A stretch of 63,983 bases of DNA, filler included. It is 14 parts of 14 records of this genome, joined end to end, with 100 filler letters (N's around TTAATTAATTAA, not from the genome) between each part and the next. Parts side by side here need not be neighbours in the genome. Positions count along the whole stretch, not along the records: positions 18,704 to 22,529 come from SRR7504441_29878; 13 more parts are not named here. One strand, written 5' to 3'. The notes under the pieces were generated by a model. That model searched no databases, had not been told where the DNA came from, and was given only the letters and a program-made list of their open reading frames with translations. Position numbers and translations under genes: made by a program. Position 1 is the first letter of the stretch. Each line of letters starts with the position of its first letter. Shown here piece by piece: positions 1 to 40,927 of the stretch.

Positions 1-992
1 ATATTACTGTACCTCGGGCGGGTTGTGGCACTGCAAGTAGCAGACGTCGCCCGGCATGTACTCCACCGCCGAGGGCAGCCCCAGCTCCAGCTGGCGCACG
101 TCCTGCGCCCGACTCATCACCGGCCGCCCTCGGCCGGACCTGGGCCCAGCCGTCGGCCGTCAGCCGCGTGTTCTGACGGACAGTCGCACAGATCACCGCG
201 GCATGCGTCACGTAGGACAGCATCAGCTCAAACCCCGGGTGCGACGCGTCACTCTCTACCGGTCCGTTGGCTTGCTCCACCCGCCACCTGCCCGAGTAAC
301 CGAGACGGCTTCCGTTGCTCACCTGGGTGGGAGGATGGTCTGGTGCGCGATCGGTTGAGTCGCGTGCGGGTTGAATTCCGTTAGGCGGCTCCAGAGCTGC
401 TCCAGCCACGGGGCCACCATCGCATCCGCCCCCAGCGGGTGCTGGTCGTCAGCCAGCCCCAGCGGGATCAGCCGCCCCGCCCCTGCCCGCGCACTGCCGC
501 CCACGGCCGGCCGGCCCGCACCGAGCTGGGCCAGCCGCCGGTCCAGCCGCTTGGCCACCACGTTGAACCCGGCGTACGCCGAGTCGCCCATTCCAAACAC
601 CTGCCTCGTCGCTCCCCCCTCCCACACCAGCCAGTCGACCGCATACTGGTTGAGCCGCAGCGTGTCGGCCGGCAGGCTCCGCCGGAGCAGGAAGCCCCTG
701 CCCCCGGGCTCGGACCCGGCAGCCCGGCACCGGCGGACCACAGGCTGCGCATGTTGTCGGGCGGCTCGCCGGCCCCGGTGGTGCTGGCCACCCAGACCAC
801 CAGCCGGGCGGCCGGCAGCTTCTCGAGCGGCAGGTAGTCCATCGCGCACACCGCCGCCTTGAACCGCCGCCGGAGGGCCGCCCAGTACACCCGCTCGGCC
901 ACCTCCTGGGCGGTGCCCGTCTGCGAGCCGTACAGGACCAAGAGCTCGACCTCCGGCTGGGGACTCATCGGCATTGACCAGACCAGCTTCAT
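1..992 (-). CDS. NDOR1: NADPH-dependent diflavin oxidoreductase 1 (flavodoxin domain plus start of FAD-binding domain); runs off the window start; 5 short introns
   Basis: Spliced translation gives VLYGSQTGTAQEVAE...STTGAGEPPDNMRSLWGFLLRRSLP...[29 protein letters not shown]...GLADDQHPLG, then NTRLTADGWAQDVRQLEL. GT-AG introns include 601-639 and 483-521. Start ATG is at 968, 974 or 992. Confidence 0.9.
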
Positions 993-2193: not shown

Positions 2194-2371
2194 TAGACGC
2201 CGTGCCTCATATTCACTTACAAGCTTTATGGAGACATCACAACATGAGCACAGGAGCATAATTATACTCATACTCACGAGTATTGTATAATCGTTGTTGC
2301 TGGCCATAACCCTAGTCTAACGGTAAGAGTGCGCCCGTGGCCTGTCAAGCCGCGGGGGACCCTTCGCCGTC

Positions 2372-12173: not shown

Positions 12174-15100
12174 GGTGTGGAGATAGTGCCCCTCCAAAAC
12201 CTCTTACTGGTATAGAAGCCTCGTCACTACTTACTACCCACTCCAAGCTTATCTCGTACGGCATTTACCGCCTCCATGCCATCAGCGCACAGCGCTACGC
12301 AAATTGAGAGTGCAGCTACCTCTCCTGTGCCAATAGTATTAGCCCTGAGCAGTGATCTAGGCTCATACCACGTTCAGCCATGTCCATCATTGCACTCCGA
12401 AGCTCAACAGCTTGAATGTCGAGCCCAAGATGATCATTAACGCTCCAGAATTGAGTCCAGAGTCGAGCGCTTTTCCAGACGTCTCTGAATTGCTGCCAGG
12501 CTGAGGCTCGCCACTCTGCCAATTCGGCTTCGCTCATCTCATGTAGTTGTGGCAACTGGTCTGCTTCAGATAGTAACTCGGCGAGAGGACCCGAATCTTC
12601 CAGCTGCTGGCTCATCAGCCACTCTACGCCACGCAGCTGCTCGACCACTGACCGCTGCAAGACGTCATATTACACCCACGCCAGAGCTAGGGCCGCACCT
12701 GTGTGAATGCAGCTGCCAAACTGCGATTCTGTTCTGCCAACCTGCTCTGCACAGATGCAGCCTGGTGGGCTAATTTTCCAGCTACTTCGTGTACACTCAG
12801 CGCAGCTTGCAACCCGGTCTCCCAGCTGAGTGGATACCCGGCGTAGGCTACAGGATCGACTCGCTCTGATTCGTGCGGAGGCAGCTCAATCCTCAGTCTC
12901 ACCTGCACTTGATGTGAACCCGTGTGATTCATTCTAGCGTTACCTGAGCCAGTTGCACCAAAGCATCAGTCAGGCACCGGCGAACCCGCAAATCGGCGAG
13001 TTTTGTTGACAGCACTTCCTGCAGTAAACAGCTGAGTAAATACCACACTGGAACAAGCTACCTGCTCCAAGGCCACTGCTGAGCATTGCCGTACACTCAA
13101 ATCAAATGCCATCTGAGCCCTCGTGGCGATATCTTCTTTCTGGGCAATTTCAGTGGCAATTTCTGTTGCCTGCAGACAGTATGGGCATTTGGACATGTCC
13201 GCGATCTCCTCATTCTCAGTTGCTTGGGTGGAATTTACAGAAAGCGCCTCTCCCTCATTTGTTCCGTCTACTGCCGCTCCAGCCTCTGCCACATCCGCCT
13301 CAGCTTGAAGCTTGGCCTCTTCAATCAGGTCGGCAGCCTTGAGTTTGGTGTCATCCAGCACTTTAGCACAATGGGTTAGCGCCTTGCGTGCGTTAGCCCT
13401 TTCCTCGATCAACACAACCTAAATGACACAGCGAAAGCATTTAGAAGGCTCGAATTAGAGCCATCATAATAGGGTCGAAAGACAGGGTTAGGGTTTAGAA
13501 ATTTTGAGGTGGAGCCACCTGCTGCTCTTTCAAGTGATCCAGCTCAGCTTCTACCATCGCGTCCTCCATCACTGAGGCTGGGCCCACAGCAAGCCGTTGA
13601 TCTAGCTCGAATGCACGCCAGAAGGGCTCAGTGTCAGGCCGTTCTCGCCACTGGATCTCTTGTTCCAGCTGATCTGCTAGTGCCTCCGCCTTGCTGTCAG
13701 CTTTAATCTGTCAACAACACAGCGTAAAAGCCAGATCTCGATAGAGCTCAAACAAGCAGACCCACCAGATTCTTCCGCAACGTAATTAGTTCCTGCTGCT
13801 TACTGTCAGTCTGACGATCGCTGTCTTGCAGCATCTTTGTCTTTGCTTCAAGCTCTTCCTGCAGCTTGTCTCTTTCAACCAGGGTTGCGTTCAAGTCAGA
13901 TTCAAGCTTGTCTGCCCGCTTATGTGCTGCTGCGCAGTCACTGCGGGCAGCTGCTGTATCGAGCCTCATCTTCGTGGTGTGCTCAGTGATCTCTAGCTCC
14001 AGCTCCCGGATTGTCCGCTTGAGCGGCCTTTGGATTTCAACCAACTCCATGTCGTGCTGCTTTTGTTTCTCCCTCAGGTCGGCCAATAGATCGGTCACAG
14101 CATCCTGTCACAAGACAGTTCAATACTGTCATCATACGGGGCCACCTGCGTGACTTGACCAGAGGTTTTGTGCTCCTTTGATTCTTTCTTCAGTCCATTA
14201 ATCTTCGCTTCCATCTTCGACAGCTCGTCAGCATGCTCTTGCTTCAGAGTCTCAATCATTGCATCATGCTCTTCCGCCAATGCTTCTTTGGCCAGCTCCA
14301 CTGCAGGGTCGATCTTAGCTTGTTCGTCTGCGAGCTTCTTTTCGTTCGCTTCCACTAATGCAGCCATCCTTTTTGCGCATTCGTCATTGGTTTGCGCCAC
14401 AAGTGCCATGGCATCCTTTCCGCCCATGGCTTCAATCAACTGTTTCTCAAGCATTTCACACTTGGTCTCAGCAGCTTGTAGTAGACCCATCAGCTCTCTT
14501 TTCTTGACCTGTAGCTCGTTAATCTTTCGATCCTTCTCAATCTTCAAATCGCGCTTCTGTTTCTTGGCCACCATAAGATCTATCGCAACGTTCTCCATGT
14601 TGCGTGTCTCCCTCCATTCAGATATGCACAGCGCAGTTTGTGTCATTCTCCAAGCTTTGATCACCATCATATATATTATCATGAAAGCGTGTGCCCAGTC
14701 ACGGGCTTTGAGCAACCCCGCGTTTTTGTTTGACATCCATCTATCCACAATTTTCTTACGTCCCCCATCCATCCACTCATCCATGATCTTTTTTACAATC
14801 AGAAGAGCTGCCCCATTCAGCTCCTGAGTCATTTCAGCAACATGTCCCCTCGCTAAATCGACTGCTGCCTGCGCAGGTTTCATAGCTTCAGCTACAGCCA
14901 CATCTTTGTCAAACTCGGCATCTCCAAGCTCTGTATCCAAATTCAATTTTGCATGCCACTCAATCACAGATCGCTGAAGTAAGCCCATTGTCCATGCATA
15001 CAGCATGCTTGCGAATGTCTTGACCGCAAGTCTCCTGAGCAGCTCCTTGCATTCTGTTTCAAGTTCTTCGACTTTCATTTGCATTTTACCTTGTGTCGCT

Positions 15101-18100
15101 GTCAGCCTCATTTCTGCCACACCTGATGCCATTCGCGTCAACTTTCCAGCTTGGAGAGTGTTGAAGCAGATTCTAAAGGCCTTCAGCCTGCATCTCTCCT
15201 TAAACGAGCTCAGATGGTTCGTCTTCCATACCATAAATTGCTCCATGACAAAGAACAGCTCCTCGTGGTGTTTACGATGAGATGCGATATCCCAGAAACG
15301 AAGCATCAGCATGCACATCCTCTGTCGCACTAGCATTGCTCCATCTACGACCTCTTCCTTCTCCTTCTTTTTCTTCGTTTTGACCACCTTTCTCCCTCCG
15401 ACGACTGGCCTGTCGTCGTCTCTCTTGGTCTCCATATTCAGTTGGACCGCGTCGTGCTCTAGAGCGTCTTGCCTGCTGTACCAGCGGCATGCAGGCTTCG
15501 CTAGGTCTGGCTGTGTCACCACTGCACGCTTCAGCTCCTTAGTGCCAGCGGGAGATGCAATAATAATGGACTGATCTCGGCGACTGTCGAGTTCTCGTTG
15601 CAACCGAGCAAGTTTCTTATGTAGTGCCTCAAGCTCTTGCTTGAGGGTCCGATTCTCGGACATGAATTCAGCCATCTCACTTCTCATTGCTTTCAGCCGA
15701 TCTGCAGCCTCTCTCCGAGCTGCCTCATCCAGTGCTATCTGCTCCCGAGCCCTGGATTCGTGCTTTACAAGAAGTTCCTGGATTTCCTGCCGAGCTCCAG
15801 CAAGCTCATCCCTCAGCTCCAGCCTTTCTTTGGCACTACATTGCATGTTCTCGCTCAAGTGACCTAGCTCGTCGAGCTTTGCTTGCGCCCTGTTGAGCGC
15901 GTCTCGCAGCCCAAACTGCTCTTTCTCGGCCTCGCCTAGCTGGGCAATCCGCTCCATTAGCTCATACTTAGCCCGATCGAGCTCTTGCCTGAGTTCCTCC
16001 ATCTCGCTAGTCTTGCTTTCGAGGATACACGAACCGCCTACAATGCCCGCCAGCTGAGACTGTGCATCCAGCAGCTCAGCCCGTACAGTCTGTGTGTCGG
16101 TGTGGCTCAGCTCCAATTGCAACTGCAGCGTGTGTGCCTGCTGTCGCTGATGCTCCAGGTCTGCAACAAGCGCCTGTTTATCGAGCAAATGTGCAGCAGC
16201 AGCCTGCTCTTTCTCATTCTGTGCACATCGAAGCTCGGCTTTGCTCGCTTCGAGCGATTCCTTCACCCCTTCGAGCTGTTGCTGAAGCAGTTCGAGCTCA
16301 CGCATGCTCTGATTCCCCCTTCGCATCTCCTCAATCAGTGCATCTTTCTTATGAGCTGCGCCAACTGCCTCGTCAAACTGGGCCTGGACCTGGCTGCACC
16401 GGTTTTCAGTGCTTTCAAGCACTTTCTCTGCCTGATTTCTTTCAGCCTGGACCCTCATCAGCGTGTCAGTTAGCCGCTGGCGATCCACATGCTCCATCTG
16501 GATAACACCTCTGAATTCCTTAACGAGCTTGTCGTTCTGCTGCAGCAACTGCTGTTTGCTGGCCTGCAGTCGCTGGCTCTCCTCCTGCGACCGTCTGCAC
16601 GTTTGTCGAAGCTCCTTCAACTCGGCTTCCATCACATCGAATCTAACCGCGCCGTGTTGCTGCTGCCACCGCTTCGAATCTTGCGTGCGCATGGGCCATG
16701 CCGACGCTTCAGTGACAGGGAGCTGCCCGAGCGTCTGGTTTTGCAATCGAGGTATGACATGGCCTGTGATGTGTATTACATCAATTGGAATCGCACCCGC
16801 TGTGATACCAAGCGTCAAGATGACTGATCCTGGCTGCAGATCTAGTACACATAGTCGTGACACTGGCGAAATCCCCAGAGCAGACCCAAGATCTGCCAGC
16901 ACAGCTTGCGAGTGCTTAGCGCCGAATTCTTCAAACGCTCCATCGAGCCGCAGTCGCGCTATGAAGAGGAAATCACCACGACCAGAGCCCACCAGCTTGT
17001 CAGTGCACATGCCGTTTGTTTGAGCGCCGACTCCAAGTGGTTTGCTAGTGATCTCACGCATTCGCTGGGTCTCACCAGCTTGCCAGCTCATTTTGTTCTC
17101 AAAAGTCCGCAGCGCTTCACCAATGTCATTGCCTGGATTCATTTCGTATTCCCGGACGATCATGTGGAGCTCCTCGACAGCCTCTGTCGCTTCGTCCATC
17201 AGCCGCTCGCCCTCCTCTCTCAAGACCTCATTCTCTGTGCTGAATAGGACCACCTTTTGCTCCAGCTCAGACAGAAGCACAGCCATCTGCTCAGGCCTCC
17301 GCTGCCACTCATCTAAGAGCCCTTTCTGCCTCCTTGCCGCCTCCTCTTGGTTGAATTTCTGTCCAAGTACTTGCTCTTGCAGTCTTTGGACCTCCTCTCT
17401 GCTCACTTTGAGCTGCTTGGCTAGCTGCTCTTCTCGCTTTAAATTGGCTTTCTGCTCCTTTACAGCACCGAAGTCAGCCATGCCGTTCACAGGTGCCCCT
17501 CCTGCTTGACACCGTGCGACTTCTTCCTGCAACTCCCGCAGCTGCTCCTTCATGGCACGCGATTCCTCTTCGAATGCCTCAGACCTACTGAGCAATAGCT
17601 GCTGCCAGTGCTCTGTAGCGTGTGCCTCTGACGCAGTCTCTGCAATCTGCTCTGCGTCATGGAGCATTTTCTGCGTCTTGTGCAGCTGTTCCTGCGTATC
17701 ATGCAGCTCCTGTGCTATGCGAGCTCGCTCCTTTGCGCTCGCTCCCAACTCATTCTCTGTCCGTTCAAGCCGGTACTGCATATCACTCAAGCGAGCCAGC
17801 TCAAGCTGACACCTCTCCATTTGTGCTTCCGGACAATTGCCATCCACACCAAGTTCTGCAATCATTTTGTCTAGAGCTGCGCCACAGGTTCGACTCAGCT
17901 GCAGCTCGACTTGGGTATGTGCAGACAGCTCGGTAGCGCCAGGTGGGACATACATGAAGTGCTGTTCCAGGTTGTGAACGGTTTGCATATAATCATCGTG
18001 CAGCAGCTTCTCTTTCTCGAGTTGCTGGTGGATAGTCCTCATCTGCGACTCCACAACCAGCTGCGGCTCAGACTCCTCCATTATGAGCTGTTCAAGCTGC

Positions 18101-18603
18101 CGATGGACGCCTGCCAGAGCGTTGGCACTCTCTGTATGCACCTGCTCGGCCTCACCAGCCTGCCAACTCATCTTGACTTCAAGCGATCGAAGCATGTTAA
18201 CCAGATCTAGCCCAGGGTTGGCCTCAACCTCGCGAAGAATCCCATGCAGTTCCTCGGCCCCGGCCATCTCTATGCGGACTGCTGACTTGTGTTTCTGGCT
18301 CAGCTCAGAAACTGTCCGCTGAAGCGCGGAGAGTTTGCCGACCGCTGTCTGCTGCTTGGCACCAGCGCTCAGCAGTTCCTGCATGCTGTCCATGTTGCCT
18401 TGCCTTGCCTTGCTGAGCTTGCATGCAGTGCTTGAGAGCTTGCCTTGAAGAACTCTTAAATCATCAGGATCAGGCGCTTTGGCTTCCTGGGCTGCCAATT
18501 CACTAGCCAGGGCTTCCTTCCTGGCGGCCATGACGCTGGTAGCTGCAGTCTTGATCATTTCTTCACGCAAGAAGATCATCCTCTCTGAGCGGCTTGGCTG
18601 TCT
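12174..18603 (-). CDS. Giant coiled-coil protein (>1900 aa) with an internal repeat and a SEA-like segment; 5'-truncated, 3' end uncertain
   Basis: 1494-aa ORF 14095-18579 continues through short introns into heptad-rich exons 13748-14098, 12966-13415 and 12316-12660. Confidence 0.7.
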
Positions 18604-18703
18604 NNNNNNNNNNNNNNNNNNNNNNNNNNNNNNNNNNNNNNNNNNNNTTAATTAATTAANNNNNNNNNNNNNNNNNNNNNNNNNNNNNNNNNNNNNNNNN
18701 NNN

Positions 18704-18937
18704 GTGGTGGTTGTGGTGGTGGTGGTGGTGGTGCGACCGTTGGGGCCGCGGGAGGTCCTGGTGGTGGTTGTGCTGGTCCGCGAGGAGGGCTGTCCCGAGG
18801 ACGAGCGCGATGAAGATGATCGGCGGGCCTGGTCGGTCTGGTACGGGGCTACGATCCCTCGCGCCTCCATAGACTTGGCCTGCCTGCTCACGTTCACCTG
18901 CCCTGCCGTCACCACAGGCCGCGCTCCGTCGCACCAT
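18704..18937 (-). CDS. 5' fragment of a Ser/Thr-rich protein with an intron directly after the ATG
   Basis: ATG|gtgcga...gggcag|VNVSRQAKSMEARGIVAPYQTDQARRSSSS...TTTT; truncated by the spacer. Confidence 0.5.
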
Positions 18938-18989
18938 GCTTGGCTCAGATAGTAACGGCTTTTCGTAACGGCAGTTTTCATGATTCGAG
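18938..18989. promoter_or_regulatory. 52-bp bidirectional promoter with two TAACGG (Myb/MSA-like) boxes
   Basis: Lies between divergent ATGs at 18937(-) and 18990(+). TAACGG at 18953 and 18966. Confidence 0.55.
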
Positions 18990-19727
18990 ATGCCCAAAGC
19001 CTCTGAGTACGAGGAGGCGCGCAAGGCCAAGATCAGGGCCAACCAGGCCCAGCTCAAGGCGCCCGCCCGGGCCGTAAACAGTAACGGAAAGTAACGGACA
19101 GGCGCTCGGACTCTCGCAGGCGGTCACTGAGCTGCACAAGCGCCGCGGCTCCCGGCGCCGAGCGGCCAGCCGGGCGGCAGGTGTGCGCCGCCGGTTCCAG
19201 CGGGCAAGCCCTCCAAGCGGCGGCGGCGGCGGGGCGGGGTGCGGCCCGTCTGAGAGGGCGTTGAGCAACGGATAGGGCGAGTCGGAGGGGGACTCATCGT
19301 ACTCGAGCCGGAGCTCCAGCAGCGAGGAGAGCTCCGACTCGGAGGTAACGGTAACGGACGCCCAACGGTAACGGTATAACGGACAGGCGAGCAGCGGGTC
19401 CGAGACCGAGGACGAGCTGATGGCCGCGCAGGTCAGTTGAGGGGGGGGGGGGTCCGTTACTGTTTGATCAGCGGAAGAAGACGCGGAGCAGGAGCAAGAA
19501 GCTGCAGCGCGAGCGGGAGCGCAGCGGTGCGGCGGGGCAGGCGCGCGCAGACGGCGGGGGCTAGGCCCGCGGAAGTCAGCGCGGATCGCGGAAGCGCCGG
19601 AGCCTCCTGCAATGGTGCGGCGCTGTCGGGCTGGTGTGAGTGCCTGATGCTGCAGGAGGGAAGCGCGTTTGCGCATTTGGAGCAATTCAGGCTGAAGCCG
19701 CGGGGCCGACGGAACGCCCCCTCCTGA
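18990..19727 (+). CDS. Small, probably nuclear, disordered protein with an N-terminal SEYE..R..KI..N...L..LG helix; about 6 introns
   Basis: MPKASEYEEARKAKIRANQAQLK|ALGLSQ (GC-AG intron 19059-19101), an acidic Ser block, RKSARIAE, ending AFAHLEQFRLKPRGRRNAPS. Internal exon phases are partly uncertain. Confidence 0.6.
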
Positions 19728-19930
19728 TTGGCTCGGCGTGTGTGCTCTATTTGATAGGCGAATACAACTTTAGTTATACCGAATGATATTGCTCGAATGT
19801 TACCATTGAATACAATACGCAGCGTCGATCGCCGGAAGAATCAGCCCACAAACCATTAGGGGTCGACGCAGCACTGTAAAGCACCTTTGATCAGCGCCAG
19901 CCCGGCACCGGTCAGACCCCCAGCGCCCGC

Positions 19931-20266: not shown

Positions 20267-20313
20267 CGCCCGAAGCTCCTCCAAATAACGGACATTTTGC
20301 CGGGCCACTAGAT

Positions 20314-21480
20314 ATGTCGACGTGTCGGTTGGACTGCGCCCTGCTGGTGCAGCTGCGGGCCACCCAGCTGTGCCACCTGCTCCGGGAGAGCCTGGCCAGC
20401 GCGGCCGCCACCGAGCGGGCCTGGGACGGGGAGGTCGCCCAGCTCGAGCTGCAGCTGGCCAACCGGGCCGCGGCGGCCCGATCGAAGGACAAGGCGCTCG
20501 CCCGGCTGAGACGGACCATCTACCGGCGGAAGACCCGGGAGCGGCAGCTCAAGGGGCTGGTCCGACGGCTGATCGCGGCTGTCCCCCGGGCCGACCCGGC
20601 TGGCGCTGAGGTTGAGCTTGGGAGGGTCCGAGCGCGGCAATCGCTTCTGGAGCAGGAGCTGGCCGATCGGAAGGACGGCCGGGTGGAGCGGCAGTTGCGG
20701 AGCACCACGGCCCGGCTGGAGCAGGCCGAACGCGAGCTGATCGCGGCGCGCGAGGCCCTGGAGCTCTCAAGCAAGCGGGTGGCCGGGGAAAGGGAGGCGG
20801 CGGCGCAGTGCCGTTTCGAGCGGGGTGAGATGGCGGCGGAGCTGGCGGCGGCCGGGCGGGCGGCGGACGAGTTGGCGGAGGCGGTGGAGGCGCGGGGGGA
20901 GGAGGCGGCGGCCGAGCGGGAGGGCCGCGAGGAGCTGGAGCAGCTGCTTGCAGCGAGCGAGGCGAGGGTGGAGGAGCTGGAGTTTGGGGCACGGCACAGC
21001 CGGGGGGTGGCCGACCGGAAGCTGGAGCAGGCCGAGCAGAGGCTGAGCGCGGCCCAGAGCAGGCTGGCGGAGGTGGAGGACTCAAGGGTGGCTGAGCGGG
21101 CCGAGCTCGGGAGACGACTGAGTAGGCAGCTGGAGGATCTGAGGAATCAGCACAAGCACAGAGTGGGGCTGTTGCAGGACGAGATCGGCCGGCTGCAGGC
21201 CGAGCTCCATTCTAAAAATAGCACGGGGCTCAGCGAGCGGCTGGCTAAGAGCGAGGAGAGGGTTCGGGTGCTGGAGGAGGCAGAGGCGGTGGCGGCGAGA
21301 GAGCATGCCCAACGGGAGAGCCGATTGGAGGAGGCTGTTGCTGAAGGAGGGCGGCGGGTAGCGGAGCTGGAAGCGGCGTTTGCGGATATGGAGGCGGTGA
21401 CGATGGCGCAGTGGTCGATGTTGTCGCCGATGGTGATGCAGGCAAGGCGGAGTGATGGAAAGCCCACTTCTACCCGATAA
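20314..21480 (+). CDS. Coiled-coil protein of unknown function
   Basis: 388-aa E/R/A/L-rich heptad ORF ending at the AT-rich intergenic region. Confidence 0.7.
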   Translation: MSTCRLDCALLVQLRATQLCHLLRESLASAAATERAWDGEVAQLELQLANRAAAARSKDKALARLRRTIYRRKTRERQLKGLVRRLIAAVPRADPAGAEVELGRVRARQSLLEQELADRKDGRVERQLRSTTARLEQAERELIAAREALELSSKRVAGEREAAAQCRFERGEMAAELAAAGRAADELAEAVEARGEEAAAEREGREELEQLLAASEARVEELEFGARHSRGVADRKLEQAEQRLSAAQSRLAEVEDSRVAERAELGRRLSRQLEDLRNQHKHRVGLLQDEIGRLQAELHSKNSTGLSERLAKSEERVRVLEEAEAVAAREHAQRESRLEEAVAEGGRRVAELEAAFADMEAVTMAQWSMLSPMVMQARRSDGKPTSTR

Positions 21481-22375: not shown

Positions 22376-22473
22376 CTGTCTGTGTCCACGTCAGTCAGTC
22401 AAGCCATGTCGTTACGATTGTAAGCGTCCGTTATTCACAATCTGAATCACGCGGCCGAGGAAAACCGCTCAGC

Positions 22474-26860: not shown

Positions 26861-27357
26861 TGCGCTGGGCTTGGGTGCCGCAGCCTTGGGCGCGCTGGGC
26901 TTGGGTGCCGCAGCCTTGAGCGCGCTGGGCTTGGGCGCGCTGGGCTTGGCAGGCCGGGCCGCCCGACTCACAGGCTTAGGCGCGGGTTTGGTGTCAACCT
27001 TGGGTGCCGCAGCCTTGGGTGCTGGCTCGGGCGCTGGCTCGGGCGCTGGCTCGGGCGCTGGGGCCTGCTTGGCAGCGAAGGTGAGAACGAGCGGGCGCGG
27101 TTGGGTGCCGAGCAGCTCGACCACCCGCTTGAGCGGCCAGCTGGAGACGTCGGTGCTTCCTACCTTGAGTAGAGACTGGCCGGTGACTCGGGCATGCTCG
27201 GCGGTCTTGGAGGCCGACAAGAAGACCCCGCCGGCGCTCTGCTGCTCCAGAGTGAGCCCGAGCGGCCCCGGCTTGGAGAAGGTGAGCGTCGCCTGCCCCC
27301 CCCAAGCTCAGCCTAAGCTCAGGCCCAGCGAAGCCCGATGGGCCCTGCACACACCAT
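26861..27357 (-). CDS. PDZ-domain protein with a Pro/Ala/Lys repeat tail; 3'-truncated; probable intron right after the ATG
   Basis: TLTFSKPGPLGLTL...LLKVGSTDVSSWPLKRVVELLGTQPRPLVLTF, then (APEP)n and (AAAPKPSA)n. Confidence 0.7.
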
Positions 27358-27409
27358 GAATCGAGTCCAGTTGATTCAAACGGGCTGGCGACGCTTCGAC
27401 GCTCATCCA

Positions 27410-28085
27410 ATGCAACTCACACGGGCCGGCGGGGTGGGCCGGCTTTGGGCGGCCTGGCGGGCGGTGCGGCACGGGCACAACGGCCAGCCCCGGTGGCACG
27501 CGCGACGTCGGCCGTGCGCGGCGCACGGGGGCGAGCCGCCGGCGGGGCTGGACCTGGCGGAGCTCACGCTGCATTTCGATGGTGGCTCACGGGGCAACCC
27601 CGGGCGGAGCGGGGCGGGGGCGGTGCTGCTGTGCCAGCCGGCGGAGGGCCCGGCGCGGGCGGTCTGGTCCGGCTGGCGGTACCTGGGCGAGCTGCAGACG
27701 AGCAACGAAGCCGAGTACGAGGGCCTGCTGGTGGGGCTGGAACAGGCCGAGCGACTGGCAGCCCGGCGGGTGCGGGTGCGGGGCGACAGTCTGCTGGTGG
27801 TCCGGCAGCTCCAGGACGAGTGGAAGTGCCGGCGAGACCATCTGCGGCCGCTGCTGCGAGCGGCCCGCCGGTTGGTAGATCAGTTTGAGAGCTGCGAGAT
27901 CGCCCACGTGGCCCGGGAGCAGAATGGCGTGGCCGACCGGATGGCCAACAGGGTGCGCGGGCCCGGGCTGGCGGCTGGTGGACGCGGGGCAGGCGATGGA
28001 CGAGCAGGCGAGCGGCGAGTTGTTCATCGGTGCCGACGAGTTAGGCGCCTGGCTACCTGACCGATCTAAAGAGAATGCTACGTGA
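27410..28085 (+). CDS. Ribonuclease HI (archaeal/plant/actinobacterial type) with an Arg-rich, presequence-like N-terminus; 1 intron
   Basis: LHFDGGSRGNPG, TSNEAEYEGL, GDSLLVVRQ, HVAREQNGVADRMANR|AMD (D-E-D-D catalytic set). Confidence 0.9.
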
Positions 28086-33487: not shown

Positions 33488-33658
33488 CCGGCCAGCCGGC
33501 GCTGCAGCAGCCTCAGGCCCCGCTCAGCCCGAGCTCCCTGCCTATGCTCAGCGAGCTCCCTGCCCTGCTCAGGCCTCAGCAGCCTCAGCCTCCCACACAC
33601 ACGGGAGATGCTGTAACGGCAAGTTGGAAAGTTGAATCCGCGCGTCGGTGGATTCAAC

Positions 33659-40031: not shown

Positions 40032-40898
40032 TCACCCCAGCGTAGCGAGCATCGCCAGGCCGTCAAGCACAGCCTGCGGGTGGCTCCAGATTACCCCGTG
40101 CGGCGCTCCATCCACCGGCACCAGCCGGGCCCGGGGCAACAGCTCGATCAACCGCTGCTGCTCAGCCCGCGGGAACACGCCGTCGGCCGTCCCCCAGACC
40201 AGCACGGCAGGGCATCTGACTCCGGCCAGCTCAGCAGTGTGGTCTTCGTCCAGCATCGCCTGCCACGCTTCCTTGTACGCCCGCAGGTCCGCTTTGAGCG
40301 TTTCGGCCATCACTTGGTCGCAGAATCGTCGGCTCAGCGTGCCCTGCGCCACAAATGGCCCCAAATCGCCCAGTTGAAACTCCCTCAAGAAGTCCAGGTC
40401 CGGCTGGTCTTCCCACTCGCTGATCATCAGGCCTATCTCTCGCATGGTAGTGCCGTCCGACGGATCCACCACATACTCCGGGTCCAGCTTGGCCCCGGCC
40501 CCGCACAGCACCAGCCCGGCCACCCTGTCCGGCCATCGGGCCGCCACCAGCGTGCTGATCAGGGTTCCCATCGAGTGCCCCACCAGTACCACCGAGCTCA
40601 GCCGCAACTGATCCATCACCGCCACCACGTCCCGCGCGTACGCCTCCACTGTGTACGGCCCGGTCTTGCTCGAGTCGCCCCACCCGCGCAGCGTTAGCGC
40701 CAGCACCCGGCGGGTCTGGCTGCCGGCTAGTTGCAGCAGCTCGGTCCACGACCGCCACGAGTCGAGGAAACCGTGGATCAGCAGCAACGGCGGCTCGGCT
40801 GCCGCGCCGCCCGGCCGGTCGAAAGCCGAGATTGAGGCCCCGGAGTCCAGCTCGACCGCGGTGCGGTGGTGATGCCACGGGTCGAAGGCCTCCTCCAT
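40032..40898 (-). CDS. Alpha/beta hydrolase, intronless
   Basis: LLIHGF, LRGWGDS, nucleophile motif GHSMG, WGTADGV, APHGV. Confidence 0.92.
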   Translation of the reverse strand: MEEAFDPWHHHRTAVELDSGASISAFDRPGGAAAEPPLLLIHGFLDSWRSWTELLQLAGSQTRRVLALTLRGWGDSSKTGPYTVEAYARDVVAVMDQLRLSSVVLVGHSMGTLISTLVAARWPDRVAGLVLCGAGAKLDPEYVVDPSDGTTMREIGLMISEWEDQPDLDFLREFQLGDLGPFVAQGTLSRRFCDQVMAETLKADLRAYKEAWQAMLDEDHTAELAGVRCPAVLVWGTADGVFPRAEQQRLIELLPRARLVPVDGAPHGVIWSHPQAVLDGLAMLATLG

Positions 40899-40927
40899 TC
40901 CTCAGCTGATTTTCCGTTATTCGTTCC
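40899..40927. promoter_or_regulatory. 29-bp interval between divergent start codons containing CCGTTA (TAACGG on the minus strand)
   Basis: ATG at 40898(-) and ATG at 40928(+); motif at 40914-40919. Confidence 0.5.

Follow-up and report, generated by a model that had tools for sequence, protein, structure and literature searches.

The hexamer YAACGG occurs eleven times in the leader and the tiny predicted introns of one small orphan gene, designated gene B, and the introns of this gene form a distinct, related set. We tentatively interpret these boxes as copied splice hardware of paralogous ultra-short introns, possibly seeded from a word in the leader; the chances of this reading are close to even. 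New here is the presence of TAACGG, in sense orientation, close to the start codons of five genes outside the cluster. TAACGG is probably a genuine cis-signal in this genome.

The window analysed here is a stretch of 63,983 nt composed of 14 separate contigs of 3.0–9.0 kb with GC contents of 0.51–0.66. The contigs are joined by linkers of the form N44-TTAATTAATTAA-N44 (for example, at 18604–18703), so that genes on either side of a linker share no genomic adjacency. The box cluster is located on the contig at 18704–22529, a 3.8-kb metagenome piece with a GC content of 0.66. A Pfam survey of 48 long ORFs of the window revealed domains of eukaryote type: cathepsin, UCH, dynamin, SulP, PheRS, and ALDH. 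Also, an open frame of about 1500 codons (14095–18603, minus strand) encodes a coiled-coil-like product without a Pfam match and runs off the end of its contig, and an ORF at 27317–28057 (plus strand) has a strong RVT_3/RNase H-like match (E 4e-25) and is possibly part of a retroelement.

The following features were distinguished in gene B and its leader:

18704–18938, minus strand: candidate divergent gene, its ATG 51 bp from the gene B ATG
18953–18958 and 18966–18971, plus strand: leader TAACGG boxes, 37 and 24 nt upstream of the gene B ATG
18952–18974, plus strand: candidate 23-nt leader mini-intron, made up of the G at 18952, the two boxes, and a CAG ending at 18974
18990–19564, plus strand: gene B, orphan, 138 codons in the five-intron frame, stop codon at 19562–19564
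18990–19073, 19102–19180, 19201–19247, 19276–19344, 19387–19431, and 19472–19564, plus strand: gene B exons in the five-intron model
19074–19101, plus strand: predicted intron 1, 28 nt, starting GTAAAC, with two GTAACGG boxes and the end TAACGGACAG
19181–19200, plus strand: 20-nt frame-correcting segment, box-free and GC-rich; the alternative 19181–19218 (38 nt) gives the same frame
19248–19275, plus strand: predicted intron 2, 28 nt, with the end CAACGGATAG and TTGAG 11 nt before the end
19345–19386, plus strand: predicted intron 3, 42 nt, starting GTAACGG, with five boxes and the end TAACGGACAG
19432–19471, plus strand: predicted intron 4, 40 nt, with a G12 run at 19441–19452 and an inverted box at 19454–19459
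18953, 18966, 19082, 19092, 19266, 19346, 19352, 19363, 19369, and 19377, plus strand: first positions of ten YAACGG boxes
19454–19459, minus strand: the eleventh, inverted YAACGG box

The gene model is based on a test of all 32 combinations of five GT..AG segments, read from the ATG at 18990. The long frame of 138 codons opened only when all five segments, 20–42 nt in length, were removed. This spliced frame has a codon log-odds score of +0.206 per codon (12 training genes of the window score 0.02–0.45) and a GC3 of 0.94, versus 0.67 and 0.64 in the other frames. GC3 along the locus tracks the predicted frame changes, which run 0, 1, 0, 1, 1, 2; a variant genetic code or read-through was therefore rejected. 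Retention of intron 3 brings an in-frame TAA into the gene B frame. The least certain intron of gene B is 19181–19200, whose sole A is that of the final AG. A 263-codon frame on the minus strand (18981–19769) is open through every box, but it scores −0.113 per codon, has a flat GC content over the codon positions (0.70, 0.65, and 0.69), and was rejected as a real gene. The G12 homopolymer of intron 4 belongs to a kind of run that can be a sequencing or assembly artefact in metagenome contigs.

The gene B product is of low complexity, with basic stretches and one Ser/Glu-rich stretch, and gave no Pfam match, single exons included. Since it matches no Pfam family, no mitotic function can be claimed for it. 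An Rfam search of the locus gave no match at gathering score. Its sub-threshold match to the C/D-box snoRNA sR10 (22 bits versus a gathering score of 45, E 0.016) is located within the coding region of the neighbouring gene C (20477–20532, plus strand) and is probably due to chance.

Six sequencing runs contained 5–9% of the words of the locus, and comparison of four of them yielded four contigs of 167–210 nt. RNA coverage is represented by a single poly(A) metatranscriptome contig (18745–18879), and none of the four contigs goes across a splice site or shows a joint. A DNA contig from another run, X1, covers 19005–19183 and continues straight through intron 1, with one changed letter elsewhere.

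An exact motif search reproduced all eleven box positions given in a preliminary description of this DNA; nine boxes are TAACGG and two are CAACGG. In the 534-bp span of the cluster there are 11 YAACGG versus 0.52 predicted from the remainder of the window (Poisson P 1.2e-11), and any other span of this length contains at most three. For TAACGG alone, the numbers are 9 and 0.10. The whole window has 72 YAACGG matches versus a mean of 45.9 in 100 shuffles, of which the largest value was 61. The boxes are oriented 10:1 in favour of the sense strand (two-sided P 0.012), and nine of the 11 are downstream of the gene B ATG. The same description had claimed that the exons are free of boxes, that one 42-nt intron holds five copies, and that three introns end in AACGGAYAG. 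All of this agrees with the five-intron model: its exons contain 0 boxes, five boxes are present in 19345–19386, and the ends concerned are those at 19101, 19275, and 19386. The "about 50 bp of promoter" attributed to gene B depends on a candidate minus-strand ATG (18938), which is 51 bp away from the one at 18990; the candidate divergent gene that it opens has two frames with similar GC3. A second trio of YAACGG boxes, at 264–383 (minus strand), was considered as a comparable cluster and rejected, with two of its three boxes being coding.

All boxes fit one longer word, approximately (AACR)GTAACGGAC, and their placement follows the ends of the candidate introns. A box stands at offset 1 of both the leader candidate and intron 3, so that both start with GTAACG; within intron 3, GTAACG is found three times. 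In four candidate introns, the second A of a box is located 6–7 nt before the intron end. The resulting fused ends read TAAC-GGA-CAG (twice), CAAC-GGA-TAG (once), and, in the leader candidate, TAAC-GG-CAG. Accordingly, the layout TAAC-N3-YAG, including the CAAC variant, occurs in three of the five coding-region introns (ends at 19101, 19275, and 19386), with N2 in the leader candidate; it is absent from the 20-nt segment and from intron 4. The inverted box of intron 4 reads GTTAC and lies 12 nt before the 3' end. Introns 1 and 3 have a further box 15–17 nt before their ends. The design of the leader, GTAACGG-N6-GTAACGG-CAG, has its counterpart in intron 1 as GTAACGG-AAA-GTAACGG-ACAG.

These introns were compared with 10 hand-picked mini-introns of 29–46 nt from other contigs of the window. 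Hand-picking followed the use of an ORF-joining finder, whose 725 candidates in 61 groups were too noisy for a blind consensus. In the 10 hand-picked introns, the A content is 0.12 and the GC content 0.71, versus 0.25 and 0.56 in gene B, which is in line with the earlier statement that the gene B introns are A-rich. A CTGAC/CTGAG-like motif is located 9–16 nt before the acceptor in nine of the 10. TAACGG was found in none of these 10 introns, and a single CAACGG was detected near the 5' end of one. The word is thus not the ordinary splice signal of this genome, and its candidacy as a general branch point was rejected. The preliminary description proposed that the last box may double as a branch point, and in three introns the last box does lead directly into the 3' splice site. 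Outside gene B, only one intronic YAACGG was met among the window introns examined. It belongs to a 35-nt intron of a flavodoxin/CPR-like gene (288–322, minus strand), in which CAACGG directly follows the initial GTGAG and GTTAC lies 9 nt from the 3' end.

The intronic boxes share more than the hexamer. Identity extends over flanks of 12–17 nt and is once inverted. Direct 12-nt families link introns 1 and 3 in the repeat comparison, and a repeat search revealed one inverted pair:

19347–19363 (intron 3) and 19448–19464 (intron 4), plus strand: inverted repeat with arms of 17 nt, 88% complementary

The flipped arm in intron 4 is identical, in 12 of 12 nt, to a part of intron 1 (19077–19088). 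The 8-mer TAACGGAC has seven copies in the window, all on the contig at 18704–22529 and none on the other 13 contigs. The position of the intronic boxes at splice-signal sites, together with these shared flanks, favours copying plus splicing over an enhancer array.

In a predicted fold of 19336–19480, the two arms pair across the 45-nt exon 5 and form a stem of about 16 bp, in the MFE and the centroid structure alike. The MFE is −56.8 kcal/mol (z −3.1), and none of 200 shuffles was as stable. The region of the leader and intron 1 folds no better than its shuffles (z −0.66). Pairing of the predicted kind across exon 5 could favour frame-preserving exon skipping.

A metagenome scan with a two-box pattern gave at least 120 loci, the pattern itself having selected for two copies. 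No relative of the gene B locus was found among the matches listed. Many of the 45 top-ranked loci are open in frame through the match, and several share one low-GC, apparently bacterial sequence. The clearest GC-rich pair among those inspected (L071 and L086) was rejected as relatives; the element is coding there and reads C-N-G-E-S-N-G-Q. Six loci on unrelated metagenome contigs (L095, L102, L075, L015, L085, and L118) consist of TAACGGACAG-like units repeated in tandem with a period of 10–16 nt, in matches to a pattern that selected two copies. An orthologue search with the 388-aa ORF of gene C against metagenome contigs gave 415 pattern hits, none of which was confirmed.

With the cluster masked, 12 other copies of TAACGG remain in the window. 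Five of these, all in sense orientation, precede the first ATG of an ORF of at least 100 aa by no more than 60 nt:

20286–20293, plus strand: TAACGGAC, 28 nt upstream of the ATG (20314) of gene C
20314–21480, plus strand: gene C, a 388-aa coiled-coil-like ORF, with GC3 of 0.98 after the ATG versus 0.42 before it
22426–22433, minus strand: TAACGGAC (TAACGG at 22428–22433), 58 nt upstream of the ATG (22375) of a 2OG-Fe(II) oxygenase-like gene
2318–2323, plus strand: TAACGG, 54 nt upstream of the ATG of a 376-codon ORF with a weak chromo-domain match; the upstream sequence is AT-rich
33614–33619, plus strand: TAACGG; the ATG, in the putative first exon of a sulfate-permease gene, follows 45 nt downstream
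40914–40919, minus strand: TAACGG; an intronless alpha/beta-hydrolase gene (40035–40898) has its ATG 21 nt downstream

All five downstream ORFs have positive codon scores, and both neighbours of gene B (gene C and gene D) are among the five cases, with the extended word TAACGGAC. The proportion of start-proximal copies, 5 of 12 versus 3.4% expected, corresponds to a P of 3e-5 and to rank 2 of 4096 hexamers, and represents five sites, counted over 63 kb of a metagenome bin that may combine contigs of more than one organism. In the same placement test, the reverse complement of TAACGG scored 0 of 12, and CAACGG 2 of 49. Across 15 settings of ORF length and distance, P varied from 3e-5 to 0.1 and was always at most 9e-4 for the 60-nt zone. 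The related hexamer ATAACG ranks 3 for start-proximal placement, and the variants TAACGA and TAACAG are found ahead of another two starts (49150, minus strand, and 26628, minus strand). A role of the upstream TAACGG as branch point of 5' UTR introns was considered and rejected, the geometry being inconsistent across the five cases. The simplest reading of TAACGG upstream of starts is a directional start-proximal word. Its presence at other genes suggests that the two leader copies of gene B may likewise be a real start-proximal signal. Such a signal would probably act in the promoter or the leader and be read by a sequence-specific factor, possibly of Myb type.

The core of the boxes does fit the c-Myb consensus YAACKG (as quoted in PMC4450334), as stated in the preliminary description: all eleven are exact YAACGG. 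The assignment to the plant MSA element and to cell-cycle regulation by MYB3R proteins fared differently. The MSA consensus is given as YCYAACGGYYA, with cores that show no strand preference (PMC5405339). One of the 11 boxes matches at least 10 of the 11 consensus positions and the other ten match 7–9, the strands are split 10:1, and nine of the 11 boxes are downstream of the ATG. Given this poor fit to the extended consensus, the MYB3R or cell-cycle reading is unsupported. What stands of the earlier interpretation is that the boxes are real and confined to the leader and the tiny introns, and that a promoter or leader word is plausible; the intronic Myb or cell-cycle array is unsupported.

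According to the reading that we prefer, the ultra-short spliceosomal introns of gene B (28, 28, and 42 nt), A-rich and related to one another, would be built from the word (AACR)GTAACGGAC, of which the 40-nt intron holds a flipped piece. GTAACG would supply the 5' splice site, TAAC the branch point, and TAAC-N3-YAG a fused branch/acceptor end. The introns would be alike because of local copying, direct and once inverted, of which the flipped piece in intron 4 may be a trace, and the boxes would be maintained as the source of splice signals for tiny introns. A possible seed is the leader pair GTAACGG-N6-GTAACGG-CAG, which already makes up a legal 23-nt intron; the leader copies themselves would belong to the wider class of sense TAACGG located 21–58 nt upstream of the starts of other genes. 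Since the leader pair is both two start-proximal words and a legal intron, and intron 1 repeats its design, the boxes can be read as copies of one unit. Box positions and counts, the coding signature, the shared flanks, and the start-proximal enrichment are observations; from them we infer splicing of the segments, use of the boxes as its signals, the direction of copying, and the kind of factor that reads the leader word. The second box at 15–17 nt in introns 1 and 3 agrees with this reading, being close to the branch spacing of 9–16 nt seen elsewhere. The long frame that opens only on removal of all five segments, the sense orientation of 10 of the 11 boxes, and the layout known from Trichomonas also speak for it. 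Several facts speak against it: none of the 10 hand-picked mini-introns carries TAACGG, branch-point pairing does not account for the conserved GG that follows TAAC, the branch-to-acceptor distance of 6–7 nt is shorter than that of other window introns, and at least two boxes of intron 3 have no obvious splicing role. Moreover, the start-proximal enrichment supports a factor acting at the DNA level, which possibly binds the intronic copies too, so that an enhancer role of these copies could coexist with a role in splicing.

A rival view is that leader and intronic boxes together form a homotypic array for a Myb-type or other TAACGG-reading factor, which would raise or gate transcription of gene B; with a promoter of no more than about 50 bp, the mini-introns would have to accommodate its sites. 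We consider this unlikely. In its favour, TAACGG fits the c-Myb core YAACKG (PMC4450334), the word is start-proximal at five other genes, TAACGGAC is present at all three genes of the contig, and some boxes of intron 3 have no evident splicing role; Trichomonas M3 and its binding protein M3BP also provide a precedent in a protist (PMC4450334). An array does not account for the 10:1 strand bias or for boxes placed exactly at intron ends. The extended MSA consensus fits one of 11 boxes, and CAACGG, an equally good Myb core, is start-proximal in just 2 of 49 cases. Shared flanks and a flipped copy point to descent by copying and not to independent selection for sites. A combination of both views, somewhat less likely again, takes TAACGG(AC) as a promoter word that is directional, lies close to starts, and is recognised by a Myb-type factor. 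Two of these words already make a legal mini-intron, and copies would therefore have seeded new introns in the gene body and stayed factor-bound. Such introns, derived from a promoter, would also serve as an enhancer within the gene, in a genome whose promoters measure about 50 bp.

Neutral growth of a slippage- or duplication-prone minisatellite of GTAACG type in pre-existing introns, with no role in splicing or transcription, is improbable. Tandem Repeats Finder (TRF) did report a 10-nt unit repeated 1.9 times in intron 1, GTAACG occurs three times in intron 3, and the TAACGGACAG-like tandem arrays in unrelated metagenome contigs (from the scan that selected two copies) are of a similar kind. 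At scores of at least 30, TRF reported no array in intron 3. The (GTAACG)n microsatellite that had been named earlier as a refutation was not seen; TRF gave no head-to-tail array beyond the unit in intron 1. Slippage does not give copies in five separate segments 100–500 bp apart, one of them inverted, and the AACGGAYAG ends coincide with three acceptor sites. We assign a still smaller chance to an RNA switch, in which pairing of the inverted copies of introns 3 and 4 would mask the 5' splice site of intron 3 and place exon 5 in a loop, leading to regulated exon skipping or to intron retention. The stability of the stem of about 16 bp (−56.8 kcal/mol, z −3.1, 0 of 200 shuffles as good) is consistent with it, as is the length of exon 5, since 45 nt is a multiple of three and skipping keeps the frame. 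This mechanism, proposed from a predicted fold, accounts for at most three of the 11 boxes; the leader and intron 1 (z −0.66) show nothing similar, and the stem may be a by-product of inverted copying. Least probable of all is a wrong gene model or an artefact, with the minus-strand frame of 263 codons being real and the boxes coding, or with the contig being chimeric at the G12 run. That frame is open through every box, the run is located in intron 4, and the contig is a 3.8-kb metagenome piece. These facts have to be set against the score of −0.113 per codon and flat GC content of the minus frame, the GC3 of 0.94 in the spliced plus-strand model, and the recovery of 19005–19183 with one changed letter from an independent run.

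If the preferred reading of copied splice hardware is true, gene B shows how one short word, bearing all three splice signals, can give rise to tiny introns and increase their number. It would also add a second case of the fused branch/acceptor design, this one outside the parabasalids, in introns of 23–42 nt. Independently of this, TAACGG near start codons would give a poorly known lineage of marine protists its first candidate for a core-promoter or leader word. The example also calls for caution, as dense hexamers in tiny introns that look like transcription-factor sites can be splice hardware and not an enhancer.

Several known systems invite comparison. The plant MSA/MYB3R regulon of the G2-M phase resembles gene B in the AACGG core and in several copies per gene (PMC5405339). 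Gene B is unlike it in flanks that deviate from the consensus, in a strong strand bias, in the location of most copies in introns downstream of the ATG, and in having no known mitotic function. Introners (PMC9860276) offer a parallel in that introns at unrelated positions share sequence beyond the splice signals, and such sharing implies copying; the same is seen in gene B, where one piece is flipped. Unlike introners, the unit in gene B is only about 10–20 nt, terminal repeats or target duplications were not seen, and the copies are confined to gene B and its contig instead of being dispersed in unrelated genes.

Two systems of Trichomonas vaginalis are closer. The core promoter motif M3 is described as resembling a Myb-recognition site, coincides with the start site, and is read by the Myb-like protein M3BP (PMC4450334). 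TAACGG is likewise a directional, Myb-recognition-like word near gene starts with very short promoters; here it is known from sequence alone, at five sites plus gene B. Also, two intron types of T. vaginalis are described in PMC13548475, where Vanacova et al. (2005) and Deng et al. (2009) are cited on the short ones. Type A introns end in ACTAACACAYAG, while the short Type B introns (about 25 nt) consist of GTATAA, 7 nt, and TCTAACAAACAG. The letters after TAAC differ, namely GGA in gene B versus AAA or ACA in Trichomonas, and in gene B, whose introns are predicted from sequence, a single intron can contain the block several times, and the other introns of the genome do not follow it as a rule. 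Both sets, as far as Type B is described in that source, are ultra-short GT..AG introns with a GTA-type start and a fixed 12-nt end block. This block is composed of TAAC, three letters, and CAG or TAG: TCTAACAAACAG in Trichomonas, and RGTAACGGACAG or GCAACGGATAG in gene B. The likeness extends to the 5' UTR, in which the short introns of Trichomonas are enriched (PMC13548475) and in which gene B has its leader candidate intron.
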